Origin: an uncultured delta proteobacterium
GTDB taxonomy: Bacteria > Desulfobacterota > Binatia > UBA9968
Direction: 5' to 3'
NCBI GenBank assembly: GCA_963727625.1
Contig: CAVSHR010000006.1
Coordinates: 128,001-192,000, forward strand
Length of the DNA: 64,000 nucleotides
In this document: one piece after another, positions 2,762-23,988 of the stretch
Numbering within the stretch: the first letter of the stretch is position 1
Layout of the letters: the number at the start of each line of letters is the position of its first letter
Position numbers and translations under genes: made by a program
Notes under the pieces: model-generated
Seen by the model: only the letters and a program-made list of their open reading frames with translations
The model's database searches: none
Told to the model about the DNA's origin: nothing

Positions 2762-2786
2762 AAATGTCAAAAGTAAAGATCTTGCC
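2762..2786 (-). repeat. motif A (dispersed boundary motif) copy
   Basis: aaatgtcaaaagtaaagatcttgcc, near-identical to 5675-5701. Confidence 0.6.
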
Positions 2787-2921
2787 GTGGTGGCTTTTTT
2801 CTTCTCGGCTGGGATGTTTGTGCCTACTTGACCTGCCGTAATGGGTGACCCTCACGGCTCCACAAGCTTTTGCCCAGCGCTCTTATGATTTTTCAAAGAA
2901 AGGGTCTCCGTGCCGCGACCG

Positions 2922-3242
2922 TTAGGCCGGTTCGGGATGTACCGCGAGTTTGATTTTCTCTTTTTTCTGAATGTACGCGAAGACAGAAAACAGGTTCCGC
3001 GCTTGTGGGTTCCCCTTTTCGCCAAACATCCGCATTAAGCTCTTGGGCGACTTATGCACCGCGGCGCCGAGTTTTTCAAAACCGAGCGTTGCGTTGATAT
3101 AGTCGCGAAGGATGGTTTTTCCGGTTTCGACATCGCCAGCGAGAAGACACCCGGCGGCTTCGGTAATGAGGTTTTCGCGAAATTTTGGATCGCGTTGTAC
3201 TCGCGCCTGAACGGTTTCTTTAAAATCTCTTGTTAACGCCAT
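2922..3242 (-). CDS. addiction-module antidote / HTH antitoxin (HI1420-like)
   Basis: MALTRDFKETV...GFEKLG...SPKSLMRMFG..GNP; downstream of RelE-type toxin. Confidence 0.85.
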   Translation of the reverse strand: MALTRDFKETVQARVQRDPKFRENLITEAAGCLLAGDVETGKTILRDYINATLGFEKLGAAVHKSPKSLMRMFGEKGNPQARNLFSVFAYIQKKEKIKLAVHPEPA

Positions 3243-3244
3243 GG

Positions 3245-3571
3245 TTAGCTCTCCTTCTTTTTACGCTTCTTATAGTCTGCCCAAAGCGCTTGGGCATCTG
3301 CAATATCTTCTGACTGTTTTTTCTTCGTCCCGCCCGCGAGCAGAATAATCAACTCTTCGCCGTCCTTGCCGAAATAGATCCGATACCCCGGGCCGAAATT
3401 TATTTTGTACTCATGGACCCCTTGGCCAACGCTAGCGACGTTCGAAAGATTTCCCTTCGCCATACGGGTGACTGCCATTGTTACCTTCGCCGCGGCCTCC
3501 GAATTTAATCCGTCGAACCACTTGCGAAACGGAGATCGGCCGTTGCTAGCAAGATATTCTTTGATCTCCAC
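3245..3571 (-). CDS. RelE/ParE-family addiction-module killer toxin (HI1419/HigB-like)
   Basis: GRSPF..WF...GVHEYKINFGPGYRIYFG..ILLAGGTKKKQ. Confidence 0.88.
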   Translation of the reverse strand: MEIKEYLASNGRSPFRKWFDGLNSEAAAKVTMAVTRMAKGNLSNVASVGQGVHEYKINFGPGYRIYFGKDGEELIILLAGGTKKKQSEDIADAQALWADYKKRKKKES

Positions 3572-3580
3572 GTAATGGAA

Positions 3581-3608
3581 ATAGTAACATTTATGTTACT
3601 AGTGTCAA
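3581..3608 (-). promoter_or_regulatory. sigma70 promoter with palindromic TA operator
   Basis: TTGACA-16-TACTAT on minus strand; perfect IR TAGTAACAT-tt-ATGTTACTA (3582-3601) overlapping it, just upstream of toxin start. Confidence 0.75.
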
Positions 3609-3669
3609 GGGCAAAACCATAATAGCGGCGGTATCTAAAAAGGGCATGGGATTCGGGTTGTAAAGCTTT

Positions 3670-3920
3670 AAGAAATTGGCCGGTTGTCATCAAAACCAAG
3701 GGAAACAAAACTCGATCGGATTCGAAAGAAGATCAAAGCGCTGGGGTTGACGGAAAAAAGATGTTGACGCCGCCATTCGCCGGGCCCGGACCCGGTAGTG
3801 CGCGTCGTCCTCGATACGAACACCATCGTATCCGTTCTCTTCTTCAGCGGGGTTTCCTCAAAGCTGGTTTCACTTTGGCAAACGGGTTTGCTAACGCCGT
3901 TGCTCTTCGAAATTGCTTAG
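3670..3920 (+). pseudogene. decayed antitoxin C-terminus + truncated PIN toxin
   Basis: ETKLDRIRKKIKALGLTEKDVDAAIRRARTR* overlapping GTG at 3798 of VRVVLDTNTIVSVLFFSG... which stops after ~40 codons. Confidence 0.7.
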
Positions 3921-3965
3921 ATACCCAGCCACGACCCCGCTGGCGACCCTCACAAGATAACCGAC

Positions 3966-3992
3966 ATAAGCAAATAACCAAAGCCTGACGCC
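3966..3992 (-). repeat. motif A copy (degenerate)
   Basis: ataagcaaataaccaaagcctgacgcc, 13 bp from the breakpoint of the duplicated amidohydrolase. Confidence 0.5.
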
Positions 3993-4005
3993 ACTGCCCA
4001 AGTTT

Positions 4006-4480
4006 TCTTGCTGGGTGGCATTGCGCAGCTTGTCGGCATCGGAGATTTTTTCGCCGTCGACCAGCCGGAACGACTGGTTCGGGCCTTTGATCTCCACGCG
4101 GCTGCGGAATTTTTCCGGCAGGTACTTGGCGAACAGATCGGTCGGCTCGAGCACGTGGCGGTCGGCATCGATCACTTTGAATCCGTCTTTCATGGCTTCA
4201 ATCCTTTCGGCTACGCGCGGCGCCGCGCAGAGATGCGGCGTCCGATTCGAGCGCAGTTTTCATAAATAAGACGAGTTCGCCGAGGGAGTCAACAGGAGCG
4301 AGGCGCGAGGCGCGAGCCCGGCAACGTGAACGCTGGCGGCGCCAGCTATCATCCATGCGTCGGGTCGGCCGGCCGACCGTGGGTAATGAGCCGGGGAAGC
4401 TCATCGCAATTCGTTTGCATACAAAGGTTTTGCGGTGCTCCGCAAGACCAAAGAGAAAAAGGGATTACCCTACCAGTCGC
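4006..4480. repeat. duplication copy B: truncated amidohydrolase 5' end (4006-4193, -) + BrnA remnant
   Basis: MKDGFKVIDADRHVLEPTDLF...NATQQE nearly identical to 2231-2418 with scattered substitutions. Confidence 0.9.
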
Positions 4481-4666
4481 GCGGACGCTCACTCGACCGG
4501 TTGGTCGATGAAGTTGGCGACGACCAATCGCATTCCTCGCTTCGCTTATGGAAATTGTCGCCGTACTCTTCGAAAAGCACACTGTCCTGAGAAAAGTTGG
4601 GCCGCACGCCAGGGTCGTCGTTCAACTGCGTTGAAAAGGCCTCGCACCAACCAAAGCTGAGCGCTC

Positions 4667-4692
4667 GAAAAAGTACGTCCCCCTTTATTCCC
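4667..4692 (+). repeat. motif B-like hairpin (RAYT-end-like)
   Basis: gaaaaagtacgtccccctttattccc resembles gaaaaggttcgcgtccccttttccc at the Y1 transposase end. Confidence 0.55.
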
Positions 4693-4776
4693 TTGTCCTT
4701 AGTAGTCCCTAGCCTGATTTCCTAGTGGAAATGCCGGGCTTAGTTGGATATGCTAGAAAAACAGTGGAGGCCCGTC

Positions 4777-5001
4777 ATGCGTAAGCGAGCGTCTTCGACA
4801 GCGGAAAATCTGGTTTCGTTGCGCGTACCGAAAAAACTAGCAGGCAAAAAAGTGGTGCTGGTCGATGCCGCAGAGTACGCAGCGTTAAAGCGCCGTCTCA
4901 GCGAAATTAGCCACGCGCTGGAAGTGATTTCTCGCGGTGATGCCGCATACCGTCAAGGGAGGACGAAGACGGGCGCGTCTTTATCGGAGTTAGGTCGGTA
5001 G
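4777..5001 (+). CDS. putative antitoxin
   Basis: Small basic protein with GGAGG RBS, ...AYRQGRTKTGASLSEL, directly upstream of RelE-type toxin. Confidence 0.7.
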   Translation: MRKRASSTAENLVSLRVPKKLAGKKVVLVDAAEYAALKRRLSEISHALEVISRGDAAYRQGRTKTGASLSELGR

Positions 5002-5005
5002 CGGG

Positions 5006-5278
5006 ATGGCCCGGCCGATTACCGTTGTTCACATCACCCCTGATTTTGAAAAAGCCTATCTTCGATTACCCAAGCACATTCAAATACTCGCGACCCGCAA
5101 AGATCAATGGTTTCGCGATGACGCCTTTGATCCGCGCCTCCGAACTCACAAACTAAAAGGCGATCTCTCAGCTTACTGGGCCTACTCGATCAACCGCGAG
5201 TATCGTGTGCTATTTCGGTTTCTCGGTCCAAGCGAAGTCCTCTACTACGATGTTGGCACCCATGAAATCTATCGCTAA
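5006..5278 (+). CDS. RelE/StbE/YafQ-family mRNA interferase toxin
   Basis: F.KAY..L...FDPRLRTHKLKG....WAYSIN.EYRVLFRF...YDVGTHEIY. Confidence 0.88.
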   Translation: MARPITVVHITPDFEKAYLRLPKHIQILATRKDQWFRDDAFDPRLRTHKLKGDLSAYWAYSINREYRVLFRFLGPSEVLYYDVGTHEIYR

Positions 5279-5388
5279 ACATTTGCGACAGTCGAACCCG
5301 CGCCGTGAAGAAGAATACCGAGAAAGTAGGATATTCGACATCAGGGATAAATTTTGATTCTTACACTTCGGATTACCTCGGGCAGGTG

Positions 5389-5415
5389 AAAATAAGTCAA
5401 TACTCAGGCTCGAAC
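5389..5415 (-). repeat. motif A copy
   Basis: aaaataagtcaatactcaggctcg; 12-mer CAATACTCAGGC also at 15447 and 23130 (reverse complement). Confidence 0.7.
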
Positions 5416-5485
5416 ATCCCGCACACGGAGCGAGGCGCGAGGCGTGAGCCGGCAACGTGAACGCTGGCGGCGGCAGCGTTCATCC

Positions 5486-5656
5486 ATGCGTCGGGTCGGC
5501 CGGACGACTGTGGGTGACGAGCCAACGAAGCTCATCGCAATTCGATTGGATACAAAGGTTTTGGGTTGGTTGCGCAAGACTGCCGAGAAAAAAGGGCTGC
5601 CGTACCAGTCGCTGGTGAACGAGATATTGGCGAGCGAGATGCGCGAGGCGAGCTAG
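5486..5656 (+). CDS. BrnA/CopG-like RHH antitoxin (orphan, possibly N-truncated)
   Basis: KLIAIRLDTKVLGWLRKTAEKKGLPYQSLVNEILA; no BrnT toxin upstream. Confidence 0.7.
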   Translation: MRRVGRTTVGDEPTKLIAIRLDTKVLGWLRKTAEKKGLPYQSLVNEILASEMREAS

Positions 5657-5674
5657 GATTGAGAGATGCGAACG

Positions 5675-5741
5675 AAAATGTCAAAAGTTAAAGATCTGAC
5701 CGTGGAACCTGGTGAAAATCTGACCCTGGAACCTGGTGCAG
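5675..5741 (-). repeat. motif A copy followed by 24-bp tandem duplication
   Basis: aaaatgtcaaaagttaaagatctgacc; atctgacc(g/c)tggaacctggtg at 5694 and 5718. Confidence 0.7.
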
Positions 5742-5763
5742 CGGAATTGCCAATATTGATATC

Positions 5764-7106
5764 ATGGAAACACTGAACATAATCGGCACGTGGTGGGTGC
5801 CATCTAAAGGACAGTCAAGGGCGGCAGGTACGCTGACATTTTCCGAGAATGAAGGTGTTAGACTCGAAATCGACAAATCACTAACGGTCGGAAAAGAAAA
5901 AATCATAATAGGACGCGCGGGTGGCCGAGACGTAACATTACAAGGTTGCTACGAAATATCCAGCACATCTGTTGGCGGCGCATTGAAAATTACTGGTCAA
6001 GAGTATTTAGTTGAGACCGCCTTTTTGGGCGTAGCGCTAACAAAGACTTCGCAGTTTCGTTTCACAAAAGCTTCTTTCGACTTCACTCATTTAATTGACT
6101 GGGTTGCAACGAGTGGAATTAAAACAGGCTATTCAGCCGACAAAAAATTCACAGTCACCTACCAACGACCGGACGACATTTCCATTACCTTGCCAGAAGC
6201 TACCCTAAGCCTAGCCTTTAGTGGAAAATATCCGTTCGGGGGGCCAACACTTACGATACAGGAATCAGTGCGTTGGGACCTTACGACAAAACTACCAAAA
6301 ACCATCGACGAGATTGTCAATGCTTATATAACGCCTTTGTGGGACCTCCTAAGGCTAACTACAATGCGAGACAATACGCTCGAAGAGCTAGCCGTCTATC
6401 GCAAGGCAAATGATAAACCGAGCGACGCAATTCGCGTCATTTTCAAGACGGGTTATGTGGGCAACCGTACGAGGCACTTATCGTCGAGCGAAATGCTTTT
6501 TTCTCTGAGAGATATTGGTACTAGTTCACTTGAGTTTCTTAAGAATTGGATTCAGATTCATCCAAACGCCAGGGCTGTTATTGATAATCTCGTCGACCCT
6601 CCAACTGGAGCCAAAGTACGCCTGACTCAAAGGTTTTTTAATTTAGTTCAGGCTGCTGAAGTTTATCACCGGCTATTTCATTCAACGCAAAGCGAATTAT
6701 CCAAAGCGGAACATGACAAACGCCTGAGTGAAATCCTTAGCGACGTTCGTGATACACACAAAGATTGGCTTAAACAAATTCTAGCGGATAGTAATAAACC
6801 GAGACTTGCCGCTAGACTTACTGCAATTTTGAAAGAAACAGAGTTGATCGTAAGAAATCTGCTGCCGAACTCCAGCACACACCAAAACGTTTCACATCCA
6901 AGATCGCTCGGACGCGTAACGATTTAACGCATCGCCTGACGACGGCCGTTAAAAACGAGGACCTTTTTGTTATTTCAGAAGTACTGTTTCTTGTACTTGC
7001 TGCTTGTCTACTAATGAGATCCGGACTTCTAGAAGATAAAGTGGCAGCGATTATTGCAAACAACTTCCGTTATGTACGGGCGTTGGAGAATAGGGCTCTG
7101 TTGTGA
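5764..7106 (+). pseudogene. ApeA-like (N-terminal domain + HEPN) putative anti-phage RNase, frameshifted at ~6880
   Basis: N-term GTWWVP..GTLTFS..GVRLE; FFNLVQAAEVYHR; HEPN RNDLTH (6915-6932) in shifted frame, open to TGA 7104-7106; AT-rich. Confidence 0.75.
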
Positions 7107-7112
7107 TGAAGG

Positions 7113-7970
7113 CTAGCAGCCCGTGGCAAAAGAGCTGACGAGCGCGAATTTGATTCGATCTACTTTGCGAGACGTGTGCAAGGCAACAGTCGACGTAACC
7201 GATCGATACCATCTTCGAAGATGGGTCCAGAGCGTGTCTAAAGGTCTTACAAGCGAGCCTATGACGATAAAAAGCGCCGCAACGCGGCCTTGCAGGCTCC
7301 GCGGCGTCCCTACACCGAACAGCGTTCGCATCAACAAGCTGAGATTCAACGCCGCCGCATGGAGTAAGATCCGTTTGAGGATGTTCTGATGACCGCGCAG
7401 GTGCACCCGTGGCATCGCTCCGGTTTCGTACAGATGCGCAAACGGTCGTTCGAGGAGTTCTCCCCGCTGACGGAGCAGGCGCTTGCCGCGTGCGCCGCGA
7501 ATCCGCCGGCGGTTGCGATAGACAGCATGGCGTGCCTCGGGGTTATCCTTCCACTGTCGTCGCCCGCGATCGGGCTCCGAGATGTAGCTGCGCACGCCCG
7601 CGGCTTCGAAGTCCACGAGCGCTTGATTACTATGATACCCCTTGTCTGCGACGACCTCTTTCGGCCCGTCGCTGTCAGGGACAACCCCCTCGATCTGCTC
7701 GGCGGCCTCAATCAACGTCTCGATACTCGTGGTGGTGTCCCCTTGATCGGCGCCTTGCACGGTCACGGCCACCACTGCTCCCGTCTCCAGGTCGACCGCG
7801 TGCTCGGCCTTGTGCGCCAAGTGCGTGCGTCCGTCCTTCATCTTGGTGATCTTGGCGTCGGGGTCATGGGGATGGGTCCAGTCATCGTTGGAGCCCTTGT
7901 TCTTGCGCTTGCGGTCAAGGCGCGCCAAGTCCTCGCGGGTCGGTGTTTCAATCCCCGAGGCCTTGGCTAG
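7113..7970 (-). mobile_element. IS1182/IS5-like DDE transposase, 3' half only
   Basis: DPDAKI..MKDG..HLAHK, VADKGY, RQRGELLERPFAH; ends in TTTTGCCACGGGCTGCTAG; reading frame cut at IS1380 end. Confidence 0.8.
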
Positions 7971-9835
7971 TCCTCAAATAAGCGCTGTGGACAGGAAAAT
8001 TTGTTGAGGTGGATTTAAAAACGGGAAAAGCCCTCTGAAATGAGGTATACGAAGAGTTGCCACACAGCAACGTAACCCCAAAAAGCAGAGGGCTCCCAAG
8101 TGAAAATATCTATCGCATTTGGACGTGCAAGTCACGTCAATTCCGGTACGAGCATCGATCCTGCCGAACTTCCGTGGCCCGAGACTCAAGGGCGGGTGAT
8201 GCGCCATCCGCTGCTCCATCTTGAGAGCGATCCACGAGGTAACATTACGCATTATGGAGGTTTGGTCTTGGCGCAGCAGTTTGTCCGGCGGTTTCGGGTT
8301 GCGCAGCGGTTGGACCAGGCCCTGGTGTTGTTTAGGCGTCATGCCCCCTACTTTGAGTCGGACCATGTGCTGGCGCTGATGTACACGCTTTATGCCGATG
8401 GGACATGTCTGGAGGACCAGGCGGTGCTGCAAGGGAGCGAGGCGATTCGAAGACTGGTGGGAGCGTGTCGGATTCCGGACCCGACGACGGCGGGAGATTT
8501 TCTGCGTCGGTTTAAGAGCGCACAAGATTTGGAGCAGTTGAGTGGGGTGGGCGACGAGGTGCAAGAGGCGGTGTGGTCGAAGTTGCCCGCCCCGGTACGT
8601 CGTCACAGGAAGAAGCACGAGATGGCGCTGGTGGATCTCGATGGTCACATCAAGCCCCTGTACGGGGTGCAGAAAGAGGGGGCGGATTTTAGCTACGACG
8701 GGCGTTGGTCGTATCAGCCGTTGGTGGTGACGCTGGGTGGCAGTGGGGAGTGCCTCAAGGTGGTCAATCAGCCAGGCAGCGGGCATGCTGCGGACGGCGC
8801 CGCCGAGGCTCTCAAGGAAGTTTTGCCACGGGTGAAGCGCCATTTCAAAAGCGCCATTGTGCGGGGCGATACCGACTTTGATCGGGCCGACGTGTACCAG
8901 GCGGTGATCGAGCAGGGGGCGTACTTTGCCATTGGGGCCAAGCTGCATCCCAATCGCGCCGCGCTGGCCGAGGCGATTGCGGAGAAGCGTTGGCAGCGAT
9001 TTTGTCCGCGCGCCGAGCGCAACAAGCCAGCCGGGTCTAGTCGTGAGGGGCGCACCCCCAACTACCGCAAAACCAAAGCCCAACAGCGAGGGTACCGCAC
9101 GTTGAGCACGCTTCAGCAGTGGATCAGCGAGATCGACTATCAGCCCGCCGGGGTGCCCTTTCCGTGTCGCCTGATCGTGCGGCGGATTTTGATTGAAGAG
9201 TGCGATGGTCAGGGAGTGCTCTTTCGCCATTTCCGCTACCGGTTGGTGCTGAGCGATCTGCCGCGTTCTTACACGGCTCAGCGGGTCGTCGATCTGACCT
9301 ATCAGCGCTGCGACCAGGAAAACCTCATCGAGCAATTCGGTCACGGCATTGCGGGGTGGCGCATGCCGGTGGCGGAGTTTATGGGCAACTCGGCGTGGCT
9401 GGAAATAGCTCGGCTGGCGTGGAATCTGGGCAAGTGGATCGCCCAACTGGTCTTGCCCGAGGAGGTAGTGCGCTGGGAGTGGAAGCGCTTTCGCCGCCAC
9501 TTTGTCTACATTGCGGCCAAGGTTCTCAAGCTCGGCAGAAGCTTGGTGGTGCGGCTGGCCGGATCGCATCGGTATTTGCCCGACATCCTCGCCGCTCATG
9601 CTCGATTGCAGACCTAACAGACGGTTGCGACGCGACCTCATCCGGCTGCTCCCGCGGGCCGACGCACGCCGCGCTGCGCTCAAAATCACTCTCGACCTCG
9701 GTTCATCGTCCAACAACATCCGACTGGCTCCGATTTGTGATATAAACGCATGCTCATGATGGGCTTACGAACCGTCAAGGATCTCCCTATGAACCGACCA
9801 TGCATACTTTTAGACGCTTGGCGCTTATTTCAGGG
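7971..9835 (+). mobile_element. IS1380-family insertion sequence
   Basis: TIRs tcctcaaataagcgc / gcgcttatttcaggg (13/15 match), CTAG on both flanks, single large transposase. Confidence 0.88.
8100..9617 (+). CDS. IS1380 transposase (DDE_Tnp_1_4)
   Basis: THYGGL, PDPTT, VDLD, YQPL, VRGD, YQRCDQENLIEQ. Confidence 0.88.
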   Translation: MKISIAFGRASHVNSGTSIDPAELPWPETQGRVMRHPLLHLESDPRGNITHYGGLVLAQQFVRRFRVAQRLDQALVLFRRHAPYFESDHVLALMYTLYADGTCLEDQAVLQGSEAIRRLVGACRIPDPTTAGDFLRRFKSAQDLEQLSGVGDEVQEAVWSKLPAPVRRHRKKHEMALVDLDGHIKPLYGVQKEGADFSYDGRWSYQPLVVTLGGSGECLKVVNQPGSGHAADGAAEALKEVLPRVKRHFKSAIVRGDTDFDRADVYQAVIEQGAYFAIGAKLHPNRAALAEAIAEKRWQRFCPRAERNKPAGSSREGRTPNYRKTKAQQRGYRTLSTLQQWISEIDYQPAGVPFPCRLIVRRILIEECDGQGVLFRHFRYRLVLSDLPRSYTAQRVVDLTYQRCDQENLIEQFGHGIAGWRMPVAEFMGNSAWLEIARLAWNLGKWIAQLVLPEEVVRWEWKRFRRHFVYIAAKVLKLGRSLVVRLAGSHRYLPDILAAHARLQT

Positions 9836-9871
9836 CTAGTCAAGGAAAAGGTTCGCGTCCCCTTTTCCCCT
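9836..9871 (+). repeat. motif B: exact 36-bp copy of the Y1 transposase upstream end
   Basis: ctagtcaaggaaaaggttcgcgtccccttttcccct identical to 14562-14597. Confidence 0.92.
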
Positions 9872-10213
9872 GCCCTTTTTGCCCTGACCTGTTTCGCTCC
9901 GCTCCTGCTACCTGCTAAATTCCGATGGTAGACCCCATCTGTTGACACACTCTAAGGCCGGAGCCTTGACTTATTCCCCTTAGTCAACAACATCCCCTAA
10001 ATTCCGCGTATGCTCACCATGATCAATGAGTTGTAGCGGAGCAGAGGCCTGTTGTCTTGGCCGACACGGAGCCACTGCTTCTGATCATCCCGAAGAAAGT
10101 CCAGTTAGACTATTCGACTCGACGGCTAGCTAGCTAATAGCGAACGCCATCGCAGTTTGATTAGCTCGTCTGAGCCGTTTGTTTAAGGGTTTGGTGACTT
10201 TTGCTTTGAAAAT

Positions 10214-13270: not shown

Positions 13271-13820
13271 GGCGGATTTCCTCCCTTCTTGCATTTCAGA
13301 GTAAGAAAGTAAACGTCGGTCCGAAACCAACAAAAGTTGTGATTAATTGATTGGGATCTTTCACGGAACAGGAGACTCGTTGCTACAAGTGTCCGCTATC
13401 GCGGCCTGCCTATGGCACCAACACGCCTGCCGCGGATGTGCGCGGCATAATTGTGCAAAGATTGAGCCTGAGCCTTTTGCAAATGTTAGATCAAGCGCTG
13501 AAAAATAATTTTCCTTTTACGTCTCACCTGGGATCGTTTATTATCCCATTCCGACCCGGTAACTCGTAAACGCCACCAAACAGGAATGATCCCTTTGGTT
13601 TTTGTTATCAACGAACGTGGGACGCTGTCAAGCAAAGCAGGATGTAAAAAAAAGATGGGCAGTGACCGCTTTGGGATTATGCCAAAAGGCGAGTTGGAAT
13701 TTCTTTTCTTCCGTTAACGCTTGCTTCCCGGACTTGGTCATCGAGCGCTACGAGAGGGAAAAGTGGCGGATACGGCAAAACCGCTCTCGTTGAAAGGCCG
13801 GTTTCGCTGCCCGGGGGTGA

Positions 13821-14597
13821 GAAAAGGGGACGCGAACCTTATTTACGTTTGCGTATTTGCTAATTCCACCGCCTTTCTAGGACGACCGCGTGGCTGAAGT
13901 GTATATTTCAATCCGAGCGTAGCCGCGATCTTTGTCTTCCAAGTTTCCGTGCCGTAGGGTGTGCCGCGGTTCACGCACCTCCGCAGCGCTTCGATTTCAC
14001 CTTCTGTTTGTGCCGTGTTCACCCATTCAACCCAGTTTGCCGGCCTATCGAAGGACCACTCGCTCAGCAACGATTCTCGATCCCCATGAACTTTTCGCCA
14101 TAGACTGCACCAGCGCCAGTCCTGCGCTTTGTCGACGAGGTTGGCTCGCAAGGCGTTGCGTTCCACATAGCGAATCACATTGAGCGCGGCTTGATCCTGC
14201 TCGACGGGAAAACTTTTGAACCGCCCTTGATAAATATGCCCGTAGCCGGTGGTGTGGCGGTGAGCGTGTAGACGTTGGCTGTGAGTGAGCGTGAGCCAGC
14301 GAAGAAACTCGGTCATCTCGCCGTCCTTCTTCGGCCACAAAACCATGTGCCAGTGATTGGGCATCAAACAATAAGCCAGCAGCCGGATCGGAGAACGGCG
14401 CATCGCTGCAACCATGATCCGCTCGAACGCGGCGTAATCTTCGGGCTTGTCAAAAAGTTGGCCGCGCCCGTTGGCGCGGTTGAGAGCGTGGTAAATTATT
14501 TCACCGGGAGCAATGCGCGCTCGTCTAGGCATCGAGCAACGCATACATCCATCGCCGTTATCTAGTCAAGGAAAAGGTTCGCGTCCCCTTTTCCCCT
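13821..14597 (-). mobile_element. RAYT-type element bounded by perfect 20-bp inverted repeats
   Basis: gaaaaggggacgcgaacctt (13821-13840) / aaggttcgcgtccccttttc (14574-14593). Confidence 0.85.
13843..14532 (-). CDS. REP-associated tyrosine transposase (HUH/Y1)
   Basis: MPRRAR..YHALNR, YCLMPNHWH (HUH), YQGRFKS, RYVERN (Tyr), WRWCS, C-term RGRPRK. Confidence 0.92.
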   Translation of the reverse strand: MPRRARIAPGEIIYHALNRANGRGQLFDKPEDYAAFERIMVAAMRRSPIRLLAYCLMPNHWHMVLWPKKDGEMTEFLRWLTLTHSQRLHAHRHTTGYGHIYQGRFKSFPVEQDQAALNVIRYVERNALRANLVDKAQDWRWCSLWRKVHGDRESLLSEWSFDRPANWVEWVNTAQTEGEIEALRRCVNRGTPYGTETWKTKIAATLGLKYTLQPRGRPRKAVELANTQT

Positions 14598-14603
14598 CCC
14601 CTC

Positions 14604-15269
14604 TTACTTTCCGCGGGTCGTCGTATCCGTGGACTCTGGCGGGGTGCTTTCAACCTCTTCGGCAGAAGCGAGATCTAGCTCTTCAAAAGGTACCCTATTC
14701 TCCTCCATCCATTTATGAAGTGCTACGTTCAGTACCAGTAATTCGCCAACTATGGAAACAGCAACTTTGTGAATCAATAAATCTTCCTCCGCCGAAACTA
14801 GAAGATCTGCAGATCCTTTCGGATGTGTGATGCGATTTCGAATTTCGATGGCTTTCTTGAACCCGTGCCACACTTCGCCCGAGGCATCCAGTACATGCTT
14901 TGACCGTACGGTCTTGGTGAGAGCATAGAAGGCAAAACGATAGTTATCCGCAACATTTAGGAACCTCAATTGTTCTCTGACCTGCCCGTCTTGAAAGTTG
15001 AATTGTACTTCCCGTAGCAAAACGAGTTCACCAGTCGTAAAATCGGCTCTCCCGTGTTTGTTAAGCATGAGACAATATTGTTTATGCAGCCAGGTTACTC
15101 CCTCAACAAAAGCAAAGAAGGTTCGAATGTGGGTACGACGCCAGAATTGTATTATCGCTTCATCGTCAGAGCTTGGCGACAAACCTAGCAGCCTAAGATC
15201 ACTAGTCAGCGATTCAAGCAAAGAATCCGATGAGGTGCGTACCCGCGGGTTTATTTTGTTGCCCTCCAT
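14604..15269 (-). CDS. HEPN-domain putative RNase
   Basis: QFWRRTHIRTFFAFVEG and IRNRITHPK (R-x4-H); AT-rich. Confidence 0.7.
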   Translation of the reverse strand: MEGNKINPRVRTSSDSLLESLTSDLRLLGLSPSSDDEAIIQFWRRTHIRTFFAFVEGVTWLHKQYCLMLNKHGRADFTTGELVLLREVQFNFQDGQVREQLRFLNVADNYRFAFYALTKTVRSKHVLDASGEVWHGFKKAIEIRNRITHPKGSADLLVSAEEDLLIHKVAVSIVGELLVLNVALHKWMEENRVPFEELDLASAEEVESTPPESTDTTTRGK

Positions 15270-15286
15270 AATACTAATACTCCCCT

Positions 15287-15308
15287 AGCGCTGTCCCTCC
15301 TTTAATTT
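15287..15308 (+). repeat. motif B-like degenerate copy
   Basis: agcgctgtccctcctttaattt, 17 bp upstream of the HEPN start, same orientation as 14574. Confidence 0.4.
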
Positions 15309-15367
15309 ATACGATCTTAATACCGATTGGGAGAGATCACCGGATGAGTGATAAGTAAGTAATAAGT

Positions 15368-15463
15368 GTCTTGAATCTTGACATCCTGTCACAATCGGTG
15401 CTTGCCTAACGTTTCGTCGGCAAAAGAATTCAGCTGGCGAAATCGGGCCTGAGTATTGACAAT
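15368..15463 (+). repeat. two motif A copies (15368-15386, 15441-15463)
   Basis: gtcttgaatcttgacatcc (15-mer shared with 16038-16052); aatcgggcctgagtattgacaat. Confidence 0.65.
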
Positions 15464-15511
15464 CACCTCTGAGCATTTCGCGCGCCCCTTCGGGAGGACG
15501 AAGGTCTAGCG

Positions 15512-15949
15512 CTAGCTCACCGGCTCCGCCACGAAGAGCGGAATCACCCGGGTCGTTCGAGTTTGATACTCCGCATACGGCGGATAGGCCGCCACGGCGG
15601 CTTTCCACAGGCGTTCTCGCTCCGCCGCGTCGCTGACCTCGCGCACCCGCATCTTCCGCACCACTGCCAGATCGCGAAGCTCCACTAGCGAATTGGCACG
15701 CAGGTTGTTGACCCAAACCGGATTCTTGGGCGCTCCGCCCGTCGACCCGACCAGCACATAGTTGGCGCCATCCTTGACGCGCATCAGCGGCGTCTTCCGA
15801 ACGGCTCCGGTCTTGTTGCCCGTGTGAGTGACGATGATGACCGGCAATCCAGTATCGCGCAGCGTGTTGCCTTCGGCCCCGTTCGTGCGCTCGTAGAGTT
15901 CGACCTGCTCACGCACCCAATCTCTCGGGCTCGGGATGTATTCAGCCAT
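15512..15949 (-). CDS. deazaflavin (F420)-dependent nitroreductase family oxidoreductase
   Basis: WVREQVELYE..G..G, TGNKTG.VRKTPLMRV, GSTGGAPKNPVW..NLRAN, YQTRTTRVIP. Confidence 0.9.
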   Translation of the reverse strand: MAEYIPSPRDWVREQVELYERTNGAEGNTLRDTGLPVIIVTHTGNKTGAVRKTPLMRVKDGANYVLVGSTGGAPKNPVWVNNLRANSLVELRDLAVVRKMRVREVSDAAERERLWKAAVAAYPPYAEYQTRTTRVIPLFVAEPVS

Positions 15950-16025
15950 TGGCTTGTCTCCAATTCTTTTGTTGGGGCGGTGCGCCGCTTTAATCCGAAT
16001 TTGGCTTACACTTTGCGGAGATTTT

Positions 16026-16052
16026 GGAGTCGCGTCATGAATCTTGACATCC
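16026..16052 (+). repeat. motif A copy
   Basis: ggagtcgcgtcatgaatcttgacatcc. Confidence 0.65.
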
Positions 16053-16183
16053 GGCCGTAATCGGTGCGCGCGATAATGCTCGGGTTCGTGCCTGGATATC
16101 AAAACAGTTTCTTGGACGAGTTCACAACCGCTCCGGGTAAGGTGAGTCGGACTCGGAAACATCGCTCCGCACATCGTGTGAGT

Positions 16184-17170: not shown

Positions 17171-17350
17171 TTAGTCGAGCGACGGGCGCTTCTTGGCCCA
17201 TGAGGACCGCATTTTCTTGAGCTCCCGAATCGGTTCGGGAACTCGCCCTTTCCACAAACCGCGAGCTTTCTCCCAAATCGCGAGCCGCTCCTTCGTGGTT
17301 ATGAGCGGGTACATGCGTGGCCTCGAAGGCGATGGAGAACGTTTGGCCAT
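17171..17350 (-). CDS. putative VapB-like antitoxin (59 aa, not in ORF track)
   Basis: MAKRSP...WEKARGLWKGR...LKKMRSSW; stop abuts GTG of PIN remnant. Confidence 0.6.
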   Translation of the reverse strand: MAKRSPSPSRPRMYPLITTKERLAIWEKARGLWKGRVPEPIRELKKMRSSWAKKRPSLD

Positions 17351-17499
17351 GGATGAATCTTATATCAGGCAGCCGCCGAAAGAAACCGAATTTTCCAGTG
17401 ACAATCCAGCTGCCGATCCCGTCATCCTTTGCGAGCGGATCCAGAAGTGCGCTAAATCGAGTTGAACCAAAACGCGGGCGTCAGGATTTGATTCTTTAC

Positions 17500-17901: not shown

Positions 17902-18149
17902 CGTGGCAAGCCAGTCTCATCGTAAAGCATCTCTTCGGCCGATCGCTTGTCGATTACAGGCAACCGGCTGCACTGCTCGCCCAACTTGAGCAGCTTCGCC
18001 GCGAGCGCTTTCCGATTGCGTTGGCGCCGCAAGCGTTCCAGGCGCTCGGTGACCGCTTTGTCCACAGCCTCGGCGATTGTCTCGCCCGTAATGCGCGCCA
18101 ATTGCTTGGCTCGACGGTGCGTATCGTCGCTCTTAATGTTCATGCCCAT
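17898..18149 (-). CDS. vapB: VapB antitoxin
   Basis: MNIK....RAKQLA..TGET..EAV...LYDETGLP; ATGA overlap with vapC. Confidence 0.9.
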   Translation of the reverse strand: MGMNIKSDDTHRRAKQLARITGETIAEAVDKAVTERLERLRRQRNRKALAAKLLKLGEQCSRLPVIDKRSAEEMLYDETGLPR

Positions 18150-18285
18150 ATGAAAAATCCTAGGGTATACTTTCCTCGATTTTATACCCCGACTCGGTTT
18201 TGCACAACCGAGCGGCGAAGCTGGAGGGCGGCTTCGAGTTTGGCGTGAGTTTTGACTGATGGCGCGCTACGCACAGCAAAATCGT

Positions 18286-19747: not shown

Positions 19748-20127
19748 CGTCGCGGCTCCTCTCGCTTGTGCTTTTTCTATAATCGCTTCGTCGCCGGGTC
19801 GTCAAACGAGCTTGGGAGATCTCTTCTTTGCAGCGATTCAGAAAATTCATTTTTGAGAGCTGCCGGTAGCACACCGGACACCGCCGCATCGTAAGCAAAC
19901 TTGAAATGCGATCCCTTGCGCCGAACGGTCTTCCTTGTCACTCGAATGCGTTAATGGGCGAACGTCCTGGAAAGGGACATTTCCGTACGCGGTTGTGCGC
20001 ACTTATGCTATTTTCACTGTTCTTTCTGTCGTTTAATGCCCTGTATCGGCCGCTTCTGAGCCTCTTCGCCGCCGCTGTCGTGTGAGATCTTGGGGGGCAT
20101 GGTCATTGCTGATGATAGCCGTGACCC

Positions 20128-20763
20128 ATGCAATTATTTCGCGGACAAAATTCGCCGTCTCAGGCGAGCGCCGCGGATTGGCGAGTGGGCGCCATCGTGC
20201 TAGCGGCGCTGATCTCTGCTCAAGGTTGCGGCATCATGGCGGATACGCCTGGCCGCGCATTATCGACGAAAAGAGTCCCCCCTTCGCAATCCGAACCGGG
20301 CGATCTTTCCAGCGATAAGCCGGCGGAGCCCGCGCGCCGGCGTGAACCCCCGCCGGCAGCGAGCCTCCCTCCCCCTCCGGAAACTAAACTGGCGCCGCCG
20401 GTCCCAAAGATCCCCGAGCCGTCGGAGCATATAATGACGGAGACGGGTCTGGCCTCGTGGTACGGCGGAAAGCATCATGGCAAGCTCACCGCCAGCGGTG
20501 AAGTTTTTAATCAAAACCGTTTCACGGCCGCGCATCCAACGCTCCCCTGGGGCACTAGAGTGAAAGTCATCAATCTCGACAACGGCAAGTCCGTCGACGT
20601 GCTGATCAACGACCGCGGGCCTTTCAAGCCGGGCCGCATCATCGATGTCTCCCGGGCCGCGGCACGAGCCCTGGGCATGGTCAGACGGGGAATAACGAAA
20701 GTCCGCATCGAATGGCTTGCCGCTCCTGAATCAACCAACGAACTGGCCTCGCAAAATAAGTAG
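20128..20763 (+). CDS. rlpA: RlpA-family septal ring lytic transglycosylase lipoprotein
   Basis: [36 protein letters not shown]; AQGC lipobox-like. Confidence 0.88.
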
Positions 20764-20799
20764 ACACGAACCCTCCGTTCCATAACCGCACAGGCGTGC

Positions 20800-20826
20800 G
20801 GGTCCGGTCTTGCCTTGACGCAGTTT
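20800..20826 (+). repeat. motif A copy
   Basis: gggtccggtcttgccttgacgcagttt downstream of rlpA. Confidence 0.5.
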
Positions 20827-21054
20827 GCTCGGCTTTGCTTCGATGACTCAACGACCCGGCTTACCGAGTCGGATCGCTAAACCTTTTTCGGCTTAGACCG
20901 GTCAAATCGATTTTGCTTTCGCCGGCAAAGCATTGCTTGACACTTGCCCGTTGTTGTTCGTACATGTCGCCTTGCTGGATCGTCGGCGTTATGTTTATTG
21001 TTCCGAGAGTTAATCCTAATATCATCCCGAAGATGTGATAACGAGAATCGCGGC

Positions 21055-21780
21055 ATGAAAGACGTCGAACAACAGCTCATCGGGACTGCGCTGCCGTATT
21101 GGGAAACTGAGGCGACGATCGTTCGGCGGTTTTTTCAGAGCAAGCCGACCCGGAACGATCATATTTTTTGGCTCAAGGCGCAACTGTGGAAGGAGCTCCA
21201 TCCGGTGGACGGTTATTTCACCGGGCTGCAAAAGGAGCTGAACAACCTGGTGGCGCGTTTTCCGGAGATCGACAAAACCGTCGAACGGCACCAGTATCAC
21301 TCGCAGCTGGAACAACTCACCCAGGAGTTCAATCACTACGTGCTCATGGCTGACGTTCTCGAATATCTTTTGGGCCATCCGGTTTCCGCCGAGGATACGT
21401 TTCAACTGCCCCAGGAGAAAAAACTCGGCGATCTGCGAAGAGATTACGCGAATTCGGGATCGGCCGTGGATAAAGCCGCCGTGCTCGTCACCGAAGGCGG
21501 CGGCGCGCGGATGTTTCGCGAAGGAAGAAAGCTAAAGGGCGGCCGGCTCGAAAGAATGATCGCCAGCGCGATGGAAGTCGTCTATCGGGACGAGAAGAAC
21601 CACTACAAGGAAGCCGCAAGGGAAGCGGCCGGCGCAGTTCAGACCAAGCAAGACCTGGAGCGAATGAGAAAGGCGGTGCAGGAAGTGAGCCTGCAGCGAA
21701 TTTACATGCGCAACGAGATGTTCAAAGAACCGCTGACACGCGACGAAATCAAAAGTTGCCTGGAATCTCACAAACATTGA
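21055..21780 (+). CDS. hypothetical ferritin-like (diiron) protein
   Basis: Helical; KELH, QEFNH, TEGG, DEKNH spacing. Confidence 0.55.
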   Translation: MKDVEQQLIGTALPYWETEATIVRRFFQSKPTRNDHIFWLKAQLWKELHPVDGYFTGLQKELNNLVARFPEIDKTVERHQYHSQLEQLTQEFNHYVLMADVLEYLLGHPVSAEDTFQLPQEKKLGDLRRDYANSGSAVDKAAVLVTEGGGARMFREGRKLKGGRLERMIASAMEVVYRDEKNHYKEAAREAAGAVQTKQDLERMRKAVQEVSLQRIYMRNEMFKEPLTRDEIKSCLESHKH

Positions 21781-21927
21781 GTCGGCAGCGTCGGAGTCGG
21801 CATACACCGCCGGCACTCTTCGCTTCGATGATTCACCGCCTGGATTGACAGGTCTGAGCCTCCTCATTTACAGTATCGGTGATCGTGTCAGCTTATTTCG
21901 TTTCCAACAACACCACAGGAGTCCGCT

Positions 21928-22791
21928 ATGATCGTCGAGAATCATGCAAAGGGGAAAATCTCTTGGCCCAATAACCAGCGCGTTGCGGTTGCGATCACAT
22001 TCGATCTTCAAGGCGGTGAGCCGGTGCGGCCGGGGCCCAAAGGCAAGATGAACAACGAGGATTACGCCGAAGGAGAATACGGGCCGAAGACGGGCATCTG
22101 GCGGCTTGTGCGCATGCTCGATGAAGTCAATGTGAAAACCACGTTCCTCACTTGCGGCGGCATCGCCGAAAGATATCCGGAGGCGATGAAGGCGCTCGCC
22201 GAGAGCCAGCATGAGGTCGCCAGCCATGGCTATCACCACGAGATCGCGCGCGACCTCACGCGCCAGGAGGAGCTCGATTGCATCCGGCGCACCACCGACA
22301 TGCTGATGAAACGCACCGGCAAGCAGCCCGTGGGCTGGCGCACCTGCACCCAGAGCGACAATACCGTCGAGCTGCTGATGGAAGAAGGCTACATCTGGAA
22401 CAGCAACTCTTTCGCCGACGATCTGCCGTTCGTCTGGGAAAACGGGCAGGCCCGCTTGGTCGAATTGCCGCGCCAGCCGTTCGGCGACGGCAGACTTTAC
22501 GGCCATCAAAATCGCGCCGGCGATCATCCCGAAAACGCGCTCCGCTTGTGGAAACGGTTTTTCGACGATTTATACAAGGAATCGGCGCTGGCGCCGGTGT
22601 TTACCACTTTTCAATTGCACCCCTACGTCTCCAGCAGACTGGGCCGAACCAGCGCGCTCAAAGAAATGATCGAATACATGAAGGGTCATGAAGGCGTATG
22701 GTTCGCGACCGGCATCGAGCTTGCCGACTGGTGGCTCAAGCAAGGCTTTTCCGAGCAGCCGGCGCCGCTGCGGATGGCCACGGCTTCCTAG
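21928..22791 (+). CDS. polysaccharide deacetylase (PuuE-like) family protein
   Basis: AITFD, EYGPKTGIWRL, HEVASHGY, PVGWR, LHPY, VWFAT. Confidence 0.85.
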   Translation: MIVENHAKGKISWPNNQRVAVAITFDLQGGEPVRPGPKGKMNNEDYAEGEYGPKTGIWRLVRMLDEVNVKTTFLTCGGIAERYPEAMKALAESQHEVASHGYHHEIARDLTRQEELDCIRRTTDMLMKRTGKQPVGWRTCTQSDNTVELLMEEGYIWNSNSFADDLPFVWENGQARLVELPRQPFGDGRLYGHQNRAGDHPENALRLWKRFFDDLYKESALAPVFTTFQLHPYVSSRLGRTSALKEMIEYMKGHEGVWFATGIELADWWLKQGFSEQPAPLRMATAS

Positions 22792-23005
22792 GAGTCAAGA
22801 AACCATCTTTCCACGCTCGAGCGGAAGGCGCGGTTACGCTGCGCCTTCCGCTACAACAACTCATGCTGCCTAACTCTACTTACCTGTCAGCCGGCTTGTG
22901 CATAAATTTGCGCAAAATAAACCTCCGTCACCCCGTTAGCGCTTGCCGGGTCGGCGCGGTCTGATCTTTCATTTTCTCCGCGCGAACAAGGAGCAGGAGG
23001 CGGGA

Positions 23006-23149
23006 GGGTCAGGTCTACTATCGTAGCAAAACCGATCATCGCGCCCTGTCATGTGGCCTGCGCCCAGGTCTGTGAAGCCGACGGGGTGATGTCGTTACCT
23101 TCGACGTTTCGAGAAGGCTGGAGGGTCTGGCCTGAGTATTGCCTTATTT
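23006..23149 (+). repeat. two motif A copies (23006-23031, 23123-23149)
   Basis: gggtcaggtctactatcgtagcaaaa; gggtctggcctgagtattgccttattt. Confidence 0.7.
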
Positions 23150-23238
23150 ACATTAGGTGGGGCACCAACTGTGCAAACGACAAACGGCTCAGTTGTAAGC
23201 ACATACCGGCTGAACACCTTCGTCATGTGAACGCCATC

Positions 23239-23472
23239 TCAGGGAATTTGGTAGACCGTACCCACTGAGCGCGGATTGATCTGCTTGCTTGCAAACTCGT
23301 CTCGTAACCGATCAAGCTGCTGCAAATTCTCCGTCGAGTAATAAGTCTCGCCGCACTCAACACAGCATTCCGCCTCAACGGTTGTCAATAGATGGTCGTA
23401 CCCTACTTTAACTTCGACTTGTACCGAAGATTTCCTCACCTCACCGGTCTTGCAGATGACACATTTCATCAC
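23239..23472 (-). CDS. YgiT-type zinc finger protein (MqsA-like antitoxin)
   Basis: MKCVICKTG...AECCVECGETYYS. Confidence 0.85.
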   Translation of the reverse strand: MMKCVICKTGEVRKSSVQVEVKVGYDHLLTTVEAECCVECGETYYSTENLQQLDRLRDEFASKQINPRSVGTVYQIP

Positions 23473-23785
23473 CGTTTCCTCCGTTTAAAATCTGCTTCCC
23501 ACCTGGCCGGATCGGGTTGATATATTGTTATAACGATCAGCCGCTGCTCAGTTAAAACAGAGCGCATACAATATGGAGCGGCCTTGTTGCTCGCGTTAGA
23601 CCTAAAATCAGGCAGCTTGGATACGGCTCGTCGTCCGGGTATTCTTCGATAATCTCCCCTGCGTCGAGTGCTTCAAGCACGTCGTCCACTCGAATCAGCC
23701 CGAAGGATTCTGACTCCATCTCTCGACGCGCATGCTCGGTGAATCGGCAATCTGCCGAACACGATTGAATATCAGAATAATCCAC
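23469..23785 (-). pseudogene. DUF4258 toxin, frameshift near 23560
   Basis: FTEHARREM, GEIIEEYPDD.PYPSCLILG, PLHIVCA; C-term IVITIYQPDPARW..FKRRKR in another frame. Confidence 0.8.
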
Positions 23786-23934
23786 AGTGGAAGTTTAATT
23801 CATGGACTTTAATTATGCCATCTTTCAGCTCCCTGCGTGTCCGAGAATCTTTGAATAACAGAACCCCGGTCCCGACTCGATCATTTTCCGCTTTGATCCA
23901 ATTGGCTAGGGCCGTGGCCCTTTGGTTATTTTCG

Positions 23935-23988
23935 GGGGTCGGATTTCTGGGTCGGGGTCGTCGGGGTTGGTTCTAGCATCGTAGCATT
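23935..23988 (+). repeat. motif A copy with stuttered GGGTCGG end
   Basis: ggggtcgg..gggtcggggtcgtcggggttggttctagcatcgtagcatt; atcgtagca shared with 23020. Confidence 0.6.

Follow-up and report, generated by a model that had tools for sequence, protein, structure and literature searches.

Orphan ends of TIRYT-type elements beside toxin-antitoxin genes in an accessory island of an uncultured member of the Binatia

Between 2.7 and 24 kb, a 64,000-nt stretch of DNA from an uncultured delta proteobacterium (Desulfobacterota; Binatia; UBA9968; GenBank assembly GCA_963727625.1, contig CAVSHR010000006.1, positions 128,001 to 192,000; hereafter the window) carries an accessory island rich in toxin-antitoxin pairs, insertion sequence (IS) copies, and pseudogenes, and strewn with short repeats. 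At a probability of about 0.68, we read the island as the site of one intact, recently active TIRtron, i.e., a Y1/HUH transposase gene flanked by terminal inverted repeats (TIRs), and of about a dozen orphan ends that derive from at least four further TIRYT families encoded elsewhere. The orphan repeats match ends of Y1 genes elsewhere and sit in 3' intergenic spacers, with the inner side turned to the gene. The original prediction had described the repeats as a degenerate motif A and a hairpin motif B, and had proposed that they serve as recombination sites of an integron-like system that captures defense and toxin-antitoxin genes as cassettes. Judging from their sequences, the motifs probably are, as it held, recognition ends of Y1/HUH enzymes resembling the tyrosine transposases associated with repetitive extragenic palindromic (REP) sequences (RAYTs). 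Integron-like capture of cassettes is not supported: there is no integrase, three of the four folded TIR types lack a hairpin, copy numbers are low, and the cargo is mostly repeat-free in relatives.

The window corresponds to C6:128001–192000 of the assembly (G000), which comprises 6.62 Mb in 15 contigs, given below as C-numbers. For comparison, we used 30 other genomes of the genus (G-numbers); tallies over them include the unpublished genome G005. Metagenome contigs of relatives, labeled X1 and X2, are about 90% identical to the window stretch. Positions without a contig number refer to the window.

Repeat families and their Y1/HUH genes

Motif A proved to be composite. Independent copies elsewhere were found for 10 of its 12 sites, but these form several families with a common GGGTCAG-type tip rather than one motif. 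The sites are TIRs of at least four TIR-flanked Y1/HUH gene families, plus one unrelated 70-nt repeat. Support for each site was assessed by BLAST against the genome, by pairwise alignments, and by an end-pattern scan, in which 28 patterns taken from coordinates were run over the whole genome at no more than 3 mismatches in 20; this yielded 78 sites against approximately 11 expected by chance (our own arithmetic). A general profile of all TIR tips was dropped, as its roughly 10 shared columns are not informative enough for searching 13 Mb. Since this profile was too weak and the bare 8-mer GGGGTCAG is not enriched in the genome (114 seen, 109 expected), scans specific to each family were used instead. 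They gave no family-specific copy past 24 kb of the window, as had been noted from the sequence, and all sites are intergenic relative to Pfam-supported genes.

The exact cores reported as shared were confirmed: CAATACTCAGGC occurs three times in the window (5398 on the plus strand, 15447 and 23130 on the minus strand), and TGAATCTTGACATCC and AAATGTCAAAAGT twice each. Genome-wide, CAATACTCAGGC has 17 copies, clustered, against fewer than one expected (2 × 6.62 Mb / 4^12, again our own arithmetic). On C8 its copies form inverted pairs about 990 bp apart, each enclosing a Y1_Tnp open reading frame (ORF) of 310–313 aa (E ~1e-17). These pairs are the ends of family F1, whose elements of about 1.0 kb are found on C8 (three full and two partial copies), C4, and C7. 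An nhmmer profile of the F1 TIR, built from the C8, C4, and C7 ends, places 23 genome sites at E ≤ 0.011 among the 59 matches listed. The suggestion that motif A might belong to a RAYT-like gene encoded elsewhere was thus correct for F1, including the sites at 5389, 15441, and 23123. These F1 solos have about 30 nt in common and share nothing further inward; an F1 orphan is a discrete unit of that length, lacking the element interior.

The 310-aa F1 gene product matches Pfam Y1_Tnp at E 9.2e-18, and H-W-H/H-V-H and Y motifs are readable by eye in the printed proteins, no reference alignment having been used. The C-terminal helix-turn-helix (HTH) match of the F1 product is weak (Bac_DnaA_C 25.8 bits at a cut-off of 31.5; HTH_23 20.1 bits at a cut-off of 24.6). 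Among NCBIfam models, REP_Tyr_transpos scores 74.2 bits (cut-off 80), versus 26.1 bits for the IS200 model (cut-off 55).

The second major family, F2, is represented in the window by its intact element, bounded by a 28-nt inverted repeat that lies 2 and 29 nt from the ORF ends. Motif B is both ends of this element, as originally recognized for one of them. The H-W-H and Tyr motifs can be read by eye in the printed protein, likewise with no reference alignment. The F2 tip is GGGGACGC, with G as its seventh letter, and is accompanied at the right end by an outer GGGGTGAG. Motif B has 16 genome copies at no more than 3 mismatches, including the solo at 9836–9879 and, on C11 and C5, decayed elements. 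Of its three reported further occurrences, the one at 9836 stands (95% identity), but that at 4667 is B-like by eye only, no genome scan having given significance for 4667–4700, and that at 15287 has no support. The inner side of the 9836 solo is cut off by an IS ending at 9843–9845; this orphan is an end left behind by the IS insertion.

A second F2 copy, 99.9% identical, lies at the start of C6, and the five F1 proteins are 95–99% identical; both families would appear, from their near-identical copies, to have been mobile recently.

The remaining sites are of lower copy number. Both F10-type repeats (2762 and 5675) match, at no more than 2 mismatches in 20, two tandem copies directly upstream of the Y1 gene C11:290636–291538; for 2762–2790, the match to the tandem copies is exact over 17 of 17 positions. 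The twin of site 3966 at C5:957947 adjoins a copy of a conserved 35-nt element described below, and in G014 a relative of the 23006-type repeat (4 mismatches in 20) stands behind a BrnA gene. The 70-nt repeat (sites 15368 and 16026, and C6:1126–1195) showed no tie to any Y1 gene, and its status as a TIR is unsupported. The sites at 9955 and 20800 probably are not members of repeat families.

As single strands, F1, F10, and 23006-type sites form no hairpin and fold no better than shuffled sequences (z from −0.40 to +1.14). The left-end form of motif B, in turn, forms an 8-bp hairpin (−6.3 kcal/mol, z −2.9; none of 200 shuffles folds as well).

The host genome contains 36 Pfam Y1_Tnp matches, 32 of them at E ≤ 1e-5. 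At this threshold, the relatives have 0–15 matches, and the four comparably contiguous assemblies 2–6; the Y1 load of this genome is the highest in its genus. Clustering of the 31 extracted Y1 ORFs at 70% identity gave 19 groups, most of the ORFs being 225–345 aa long. An inverted repeat with a score of at least 25 within about 60 nt of both ORF ends was observed for 12 of the 22 Y1 ORFs of at least 200 aa. Read from the outside in, these repeats start with GGGGTCAG or GGGGAC, and the TIRs of families F1, F3, F4, and F6 begin with GGGGTCAG.

The F1 repeat has 24 matches in this genome and is matched in 19 of the 30 relatives, among them G038, where there are only two Y1 matches. Beyond singles, we observed a 75-nt inverted doublet of TIR copies at C5:844820/844895 and, in G038, a grouped array of five F1 repeats in the same orientation within 30 kb. 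In that array (C19:1–16000 of G038), the F1 repeat and an F10-like unit, the latter recognized by eye, both belong to a composite unit of about 85 nt, which recurs in five copies of one orientation within 30 kb. Three ORFs in the repeated interior beside these F1 repeats gave no match to a Pfam family.

Several loci elsewhere in the genome add to the picture of these repeats and genes. On C8 (232001–250000), F1 copies are interleaved with fragments of RHS-repeat proteins that are themselves duplicated (92–98%); the locus resembles an array of Rhs orphan tips that the transposase element has invaded, or together with which it was duplicated. On C2 (451001–456500), the ORF of a LysR-type regulator ends after 184 aa exactly at an F1-like repeat, retaining the HTH and the first 60 residues of the substrate domain, and a second copy of the repeat follows 415 nt on in the same orientation. 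Directly downstream of the TIRYT gene C9:287873–288820, a CRISPR-like array, with repeats of 36–39 nt at a spacing of about 72 nt, occupies C9:286129–287842; it surfaced as repeated BLAST matches of the flank of this gene.

Placement of the repeats, end duplications, and relation to known elements

The orphans are concentrated in the island. Genome-wide, 23 sites at no more than 2 mismatches are separated from every Y1 ORF by more than 130 nt. Five of these fall within the 21-kb stretch, where about 0.07 would be expected from its length (our own arithmetic), and none in the other 40 kb of the window. Thus, orphans of at least four families are gathered in the island.

They are also polar. Of the 14 orphan or repeat sites in the window, 12 turn their inner side to the 3' end of the neighboring gene, at −14 to 229 nt. 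The six sites to the left of 9.9 kb all share one orientation and those to the right have the opposite one, matching the gene strand. The two site orientations of the original prediction are explained by gene strand (plus left of 9.9 kb, minus right). At sites outside the window, a gene 3' end lies on the inner side in 9 of 12 cases, after the exclusion of 6 sites inside crude ORFs, and on the outer side in 6 of 12; these counts rest on crude ORF calls, include several paralogous sites, and are not independent, which weakens them as support for our interpretation. Among 22 F1 solos in relatives, 14 have the inner side toward a gene 3' end and 8 do not, where two of the eight exceptions are BrnA genes too short for the ORF caller and one site was counted twice (loci L054 and L070 being the same). 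The arrangement of orphans behind gene 3' ends in one polarity points to transcription or selection as shaping where orphans land.

A further regularity concerns the ends themselves. Outside many of them, the last 3–8 bases of the tip are tandemly duplicated together with 8–16 bases of the flank. Such duplications were observed at 12 of 58 TIR sites versus 113 of 20,000 random positions in this genome, and at 8 of 35 F1 ends versus 36 of 5,000 control positions in relatives; the latter count was made after the removal of four duplicate loci, two of the eight come from the unpublished genome, and two more ends have periods over the limit. Single intact elements have the duplication at both ends with different units, and hence it is not a target-site duplication. 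The duplicated unit starts inside the conserved tip, and the tandem form suggests a sequence of nicking, extension, and resealing. In the available text of the TIRYT literature (PMC3733652, PMC6006769), we found no mention of such duplications.

For the RAYT enzyme TnpA-REP, it has been reported that single-stranded REPs are cut at C|T with formation of a 5'-phosphotyrosine link, leaving a 3'-OH able to prime synthesis or strand transfer (PMC8266576, in its available part). By analogy, the interior of the conserved GGGGWSAS tip may be where the Y1 enzymes of this genome nick single-stranded DNA. Single ends and pairs of ends could then be spread in trans by cleavage and strand transfer of the kind observed in vitro for TnpA-REP, in a manner resembling that proposed for REP and REPIN sequences. 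The tip-plus-flank duplication would be a by-product, arising from a nick, short displacement synthesis primed by the 3'-OH, and resealing of the tyrosine-linked 5' end. Toxin-antitoxin, HEPN, and enzyme genes would adjoin the repeats through shared build-up in dispensable DNA, not through transport by the repeats.

The elements belong to a known, little-studied kind, the TIRYT/TIRtron repeats. TIRtrons have been described as RAYT-like genes flanked by terminal inverted repeats, many of which share GGGGWSAS (Di Nocera, De Gregorio and Rocco, 2013; PMC3733652). TIRYT has been equated with TnpA-Y1 subclass 2.1, many proteins of which have Bac_DnaA_C or HTH_23/28 tails; a C-terminal HTH of type Bac_DnaA_C, HTH_23, or HTH_28 marks subclass 2.1.2 (Quentin et al., 2018; PMC6006769). 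According to the portions of these two papers at hand, TIRYT repeat families are moderate in size, the repeats occur singly, paired, or grouped, and there are 2–3 genes per genome. The present elements agree in that genes with the Y1/HUH domain (F1, F2) lie bases away from TIRs whose tip fits GGGGWSAS, in that low-to-moderate numbers of copies occur as singles, pairs, and groups, and in that the genome has several TIRYT genes; matches to DnaA_C and HTH_23 tails, as in the F1 product, are weak and below the cut-offs. They differ in number, with 32–36 Y1 matches in at least 19 clusters against the 2–3 genes per genome given in those portions. They differ also in that two families are multi-copy, nearly identical, and IS-like, and in that orphans of at least four families lie in one 21-kb island.

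REPtrons (RAYT/TnpA-REP) are the closest comparison outside this kind, and reportedly their literature includes Nunvar 2010 and Bertels and Rainey 2011. They resemble the present elements in having an IS200-related Y1/HUH enzyme flanked by inverted short repeats that are also dispersed extragenically, mostly downstream of genes. In contrast to REPtrons, three of the four folded repeat types here are not hairpins, there is no GTAG tag, and the transposase genes are multi-copy rather than single domesticated copies. In the accessible parts of Bertels 2017 (PMC5581495) and Corneloup 2021 (PMC8266576), the likely chemistry, single-strand cleavage with strand transfer, is also the one considered here. 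Families here have at most 24 copies (tens, not hundreds), versus more than 100 REPs per genome in the REPtron literature as far as it was accessible.

Elements of the IS200/IS605 type, e.g., IS608 and ISDra2, have subterminal hairpins and no inverted repeats, encode a TnpA of about 130–150 aa, and insert 3' of a tetra- or pentanucleotide. The present elements share with them the Pfam Y1_Tnp domain, the one-gene organization (0.8–1.0 kb), and the apparently recent mobility of at least two families. They are unlike them in their inverted-repeat ends, in their 225–345-aa proteins, and in the NCBIfam scores, where F1 comes nearer to the RAYT model, though under its cut-off.

Apart from the limits of the polarity counts, several points weigh against the interpretation of the island as one TIRtron with orphan ends of others. 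Firstly, the inverted-repeat search found no partner end for the F10-type repeat, and comparison of the F1 protein with PDB by sequence gave no match at E ≤ 0.01. The best NCBIfam match of the F2 protein, REP_Tyr_transpos at 63.1 bits, falls below the cut-off of 80 (the IS200 model does not match), and a Pfam scan of this 233-aa protein found no HTH family. Secondly, repeats of different families stand behind the same BrnA stop codon in different species, and this is poorly explained by pure co-accumulation, as is the uniform polarity. Thirdly, orientation of the solos outside the window agrees with the local skew in 4 cases and disagrees in 11, with 3 excluded for |skew| < 0.01. A rule tying solo orientation to the replication strand, suggested by the two polarity groups of the window meeting near a skew peak, is ruled out by these counts; solo polarity follows gene strand, not replication direction. 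Finally, we found no experimental or biochemical work on TIRYT in the literature searched, which is comparative, and therefore cleavage in the tip is something that we infer.

TIRYT elements are widespread and are not known to have been studied at the bench, and this genome is an unusually rich natural sample, with at least 19 families, two of them apparently active recently, and many orphan ends. The duplications, present at about one in five ends both in this genome and in related species, suggest that the enzyme is likely to cut in the conserved tip. As matters stand, repeats of this sort beside defense and toxin-antitoxin genes are to be read as footprints of a known repeat family rather than as markers of a cargo vehicle. 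The features worth retaining are the exceptional TIRYT load and diversity, the location of repeats behind genes in one polarity, their repeated association with BrnA, and, as a lead to the cleavage site, the duplication of tip plus flank.

Alternative explanations for the association of repeats and genes

An explanation that dispenses with Y1 catalysis is that the repeats and BrnA stumps act as portable homology, modules being swapped by homologous recombination between short flanks, as in minimal mobile elements. A block consisting of an amidohydrolase stump and BrnA indeed occurs two to three times around toxin-antitoxin pairs, at 95%, 87%, 74%, and 67% identity; with such uneven values, single-crossover import of diverged alleles would fit better than an in-place duplication. 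The first two BrnA copies are frameshifted relics, as this explanation would have it. On the other hand, at about 30 nt the repeats are short substrates for RecA-dependent exchange, the tip-plus-flank duplications and the polarity are left unexplained, and no donor allele was identified. We regard this explanation as unlikely.

The cassette hypothesis in its explicit form states that a Y1 enzyme cuts two repeats of the same orientation and frees a single-stranded circle made of one gene module and one repeat, which is then inserted at another repeat, so that polar [gene–repeat] arrays are built as with integron attC sites. The likeness to integrons lies in runs of small modules, often toxin-antitoxin, each followed by a short, variable site of one orientation. 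The differences are that the window has no IntI or other tyrosine recombinase (none of the 16 Phage_integrase matches of the genome falls within C6:128001–192000), that the sites are not attC-like imperfect palindromes, that no attI or Pc is evident, and that the modules occur site-free in relatives. The polarity of the window sites (12 of 14), with two orientation groups that follow the gene strand, is as the hypothesis would have it, and so are the adjacent units [RelE/ParE pair–F1 repeat][BrnA–F10 repeat] and the five F1 repeats of one orientation in G038. That the repeat families have only the tip in common recalls attC sites, which share little sequence.

Comparison of single modules with their relatives gives a divided answer. 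In G041, the same F1 repeat follows the RelE/ParE pair, and the outer end of this repeat is the limit of homology (the other boundary being a contig end); in three of the four related copies, i.e., one in G017 and two in G032, homology stops at the toxin stop codon and there is no repeat. The DUF4258/MqsA pair is present in 4 of the 30 other genomes, with long matches in three. In G041, G036, and G007, it is homologous over 23201–23842 only, with no such repeat on either side, which speaks against a common unit. The intact BrnA and both frameshifted copies are each followed by a repeat, as cassettes would be, but the BrnA sequence is kept while the repeat behind it changes family. Thus, in G003 an F1 repeat stands directly after the stop codon of two BrnA genes, and in G014 a 23006-type repeat stands after one. 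As BrnA is constant and the family of the repeat varies, gene and repeat are not one heritable unit; this speaks for repeats having arrived more than once in the 3' spacer behind BrnA, rather than for a gene-plus-repeat unit.

The breakpoints are no more decisive. One X1 contig lacks a 2,231-nt segment, with the joint 21763→23995, that contains a deacetylase, three repeat sites, and a toxin-antitoxin pair. The right break of the missing segment (21764–23994) is 9 nt from site 23963, as a cassette boundary would be, but its left end (21763) is at no repeat. The F420 unit 15460–16100 is tandem or placed elsewhere in the X1 and X2 contigs. Between species so diverged, all breakpoints are intergenic, where the repeats sit anyway. 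With no more than tens of bases between gene ends and repeats, breakpoints cannot tell repeat-mediated from merely intergenic events. Synteny with relatives was tried as a source of precise indels and given up: G014, G018, and G004 match in single genes only, plus an inversion, the species being too diverged. No circle junction and no precise gain or loss of a single unit was seen, the highest share of the words of the stretch in any public run being 0.10.

Tandem arrangement is another point in favor of cassettes: C2 holds two tandem copies of [DUF4160–DUF7700–F2 repeat], 90% identical, and their mirror image at a distance of 1.9 kb. The neighbors of solos elsewhere, in contrast, are mostly ordinary or IS genes. 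The 20 proteins flanking 11 such solos comprise one MazF, one DUF4160, fragments of IS110 and DDE transposases, HerA-like and M78 proteins, and ordinary enzymes. The polarity, the repeat kept in G041, the tandem array on C2, and the X1 indel would equally be expected of REP-like repeats in 3' intergenic spacers. On balance, we consider the cassette hypothesis quite improbable. The same holds for its strongest version, an integrase-free analogue of the integron in which orphan repeats are working recombination sites, a gene module and the repeat behind its stop codon being excised as a single-stranded circle at the GGGGWSAS tip and pasted by another tip, with the duplications as scars; we find it decidedly doubtful. 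If the repeats did also move neighboring genes, this would constitute a new route of gene shuffling.

The C2 array has a further peculiarity. The locus (C2:813001–820500) is an inverted duplication of 98.5% identity around a 1.9-kb center of small ORFs. Each arm contains two tandem DUF4160–DUF7700 gene pairs (90% alike), and every pair is followed by a B-type repeat.

Finally, it is scarcely credible that the motifs are host regulatory signals (promoter −35 boxes, terminators) or chance matches to a loose consensus: several copies do contain the word TTGAC, the bare GGGGTCAG is not enriched, and two of the 12 sites lack a second copy, but the same strings of 20–30 nt form the inverted ends of Y1 genes, the sites follow stop codons rather than precede starts, and copies with the same boundaries exist in 19 of the 30 related genomes.

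The island and its setting

The features of the island are collected in Table 1. The gene content of the first 26 kb is as originally listed.

Table 1. Repeats, elements, and genes in the window (positions 1–64,000; "tip" is the outer end of a repeat)
Feature	Position	Strand	Remarks
F10-type TIR-like repeat	2762–2790	−	Tip right; end of frameshifted BrnA-like copy 1
Low-copy TIR-like repeat, GGYGTCAGG tip	3966–3996	−	Tip right; 21/22 identical to C5:957947–957965
B-like G-run motif	4667–4700	−	7 nt past frameshifted BrnA-like copy 2; likeness by eye
Solo F1 TIR, ~30 nt (predicted site 5389)	5387–5418	−	Tip right; nhmmer E 1e-4; 109 nt past RelE/ParE-like toxin gene
F10-type TIR-like repeat	5675–5705	−	Tip right; 19 nt past intact BrnA; tip again at ~5718–5738
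Solo left-type F2 TIR (motif B)	9836–9879	−	Tip right; 95% identical to 14562–14605; 1 mismatch in 20
Predicted site 9955	9955–9985		Only self-matches and 13–19-nt chance-level genome matches
70-nt repeat (predicted site 15368)	15366–15434		84% to C6:1126–1195, 85% to 16029–16076
Solo F1 TIR (predicted site 15441)	15438–15465	+	Tip left; nhmmer E 3.4e-4; 3 mismatches in 20; 47 nt past F420H2 quinone-reductase gene
Partial 70-nt repeat copy (predicted site 16026)	16029–16076		With 15366–15434 brackets F420 gene
Predicted site 20800	20800–20830		Without second genome copy
Low-copy TIR-like repeat, 23006 type	23006–23030	+	Tip left; 25/28 identical to C14:4990
Solo F1 TIR (predicted site 23123)	23119–23155	+	Tip left; nhmmer E 5.3e-5; 2 mismatches in 20; 84 nt past MqsA-like antitoxin gene
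Diverged 23006-type repeat	23963–23986	+	Tip left; 17/23 identical to 23006; 40 nt past TauD gene
Intact TIRtron, family F2	13813–14601	−	Right TIR 13813–13840, left TIR 14574–14601
F2 Y1/HUH transposase gene, 233 aa	13843–14544	−	Pfam Y1_Tnp E 2.7e-13
Segmental repeat block	2226–5705	+	Amidohydrolase 5' stump and BrnA-like gene, 2–3 copies at 67–95% identity
IS with DDE_Tnp_1_4 transposase	7967–9845		100% identical copies on C2, C4, C14
Conserved 35-nt element	9903–9937	+	Between the two polarity groups
Toxin-antitoxin pairs	First 26 kb		HigB-like, RelE/ParE-like, VapBC, DUF4258/MqsA-like (Pfam)
Other genes	First 26 kb		ApeA-HEPN, two DDE transposases, TctCBA transporter, 233-aa Y1_Tnp, F420H2 quinone reductase, other enzymes

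The segmental repeat block at the left edge (families D1, D2, and D4) is interleaved with the HigB-like and RelE/ParE-like toxin-antitoxin pairs. BrnA-like copies 1 and 2 in it are frameshifted, and the third BrnA is intact (5444–5656; Pfam BrnA_antitoxin E 5.2e-8). No BrnT toxin gene adjoins any of the BrnA-like copies in the block.

The conserved 35-nt element has seven copies in the genome (window 9903–9937, C8:236887, C8:234665, C5:957901, C5:958001, C9:176443, and C2:218867). It is 92–96% identical across four other species, one of them represented by the unpublished genome G005, which is above the identity of the neighboring genes. The copy at 9903–9937 has no significant fold and no Rfam family; more generally, no Rfam family was matched in 1–26 kb of the window. 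Several copies of the element adjoin TIR copies.

An rRNA operon and two tRNAs were identified by Rfam at 33–38 kb, to the right of the island. On the 357-kb contig C6, cumulative GC skew peaks at 130–160 kb, corresponding to positions 1–30000 of the window, and the rRNA operon is co-oriented with a leftward fork, pointing toward the skew peak. Judging from skew and operon direction on this one contig, the island probably lies near the replication terminus.

The IS in the middle of the island was recently active, as follows from its identity to the copies on three other contigs. Directly adjoining it, at 7113–7928, is a truncated DDE_Tnp_1 gene.

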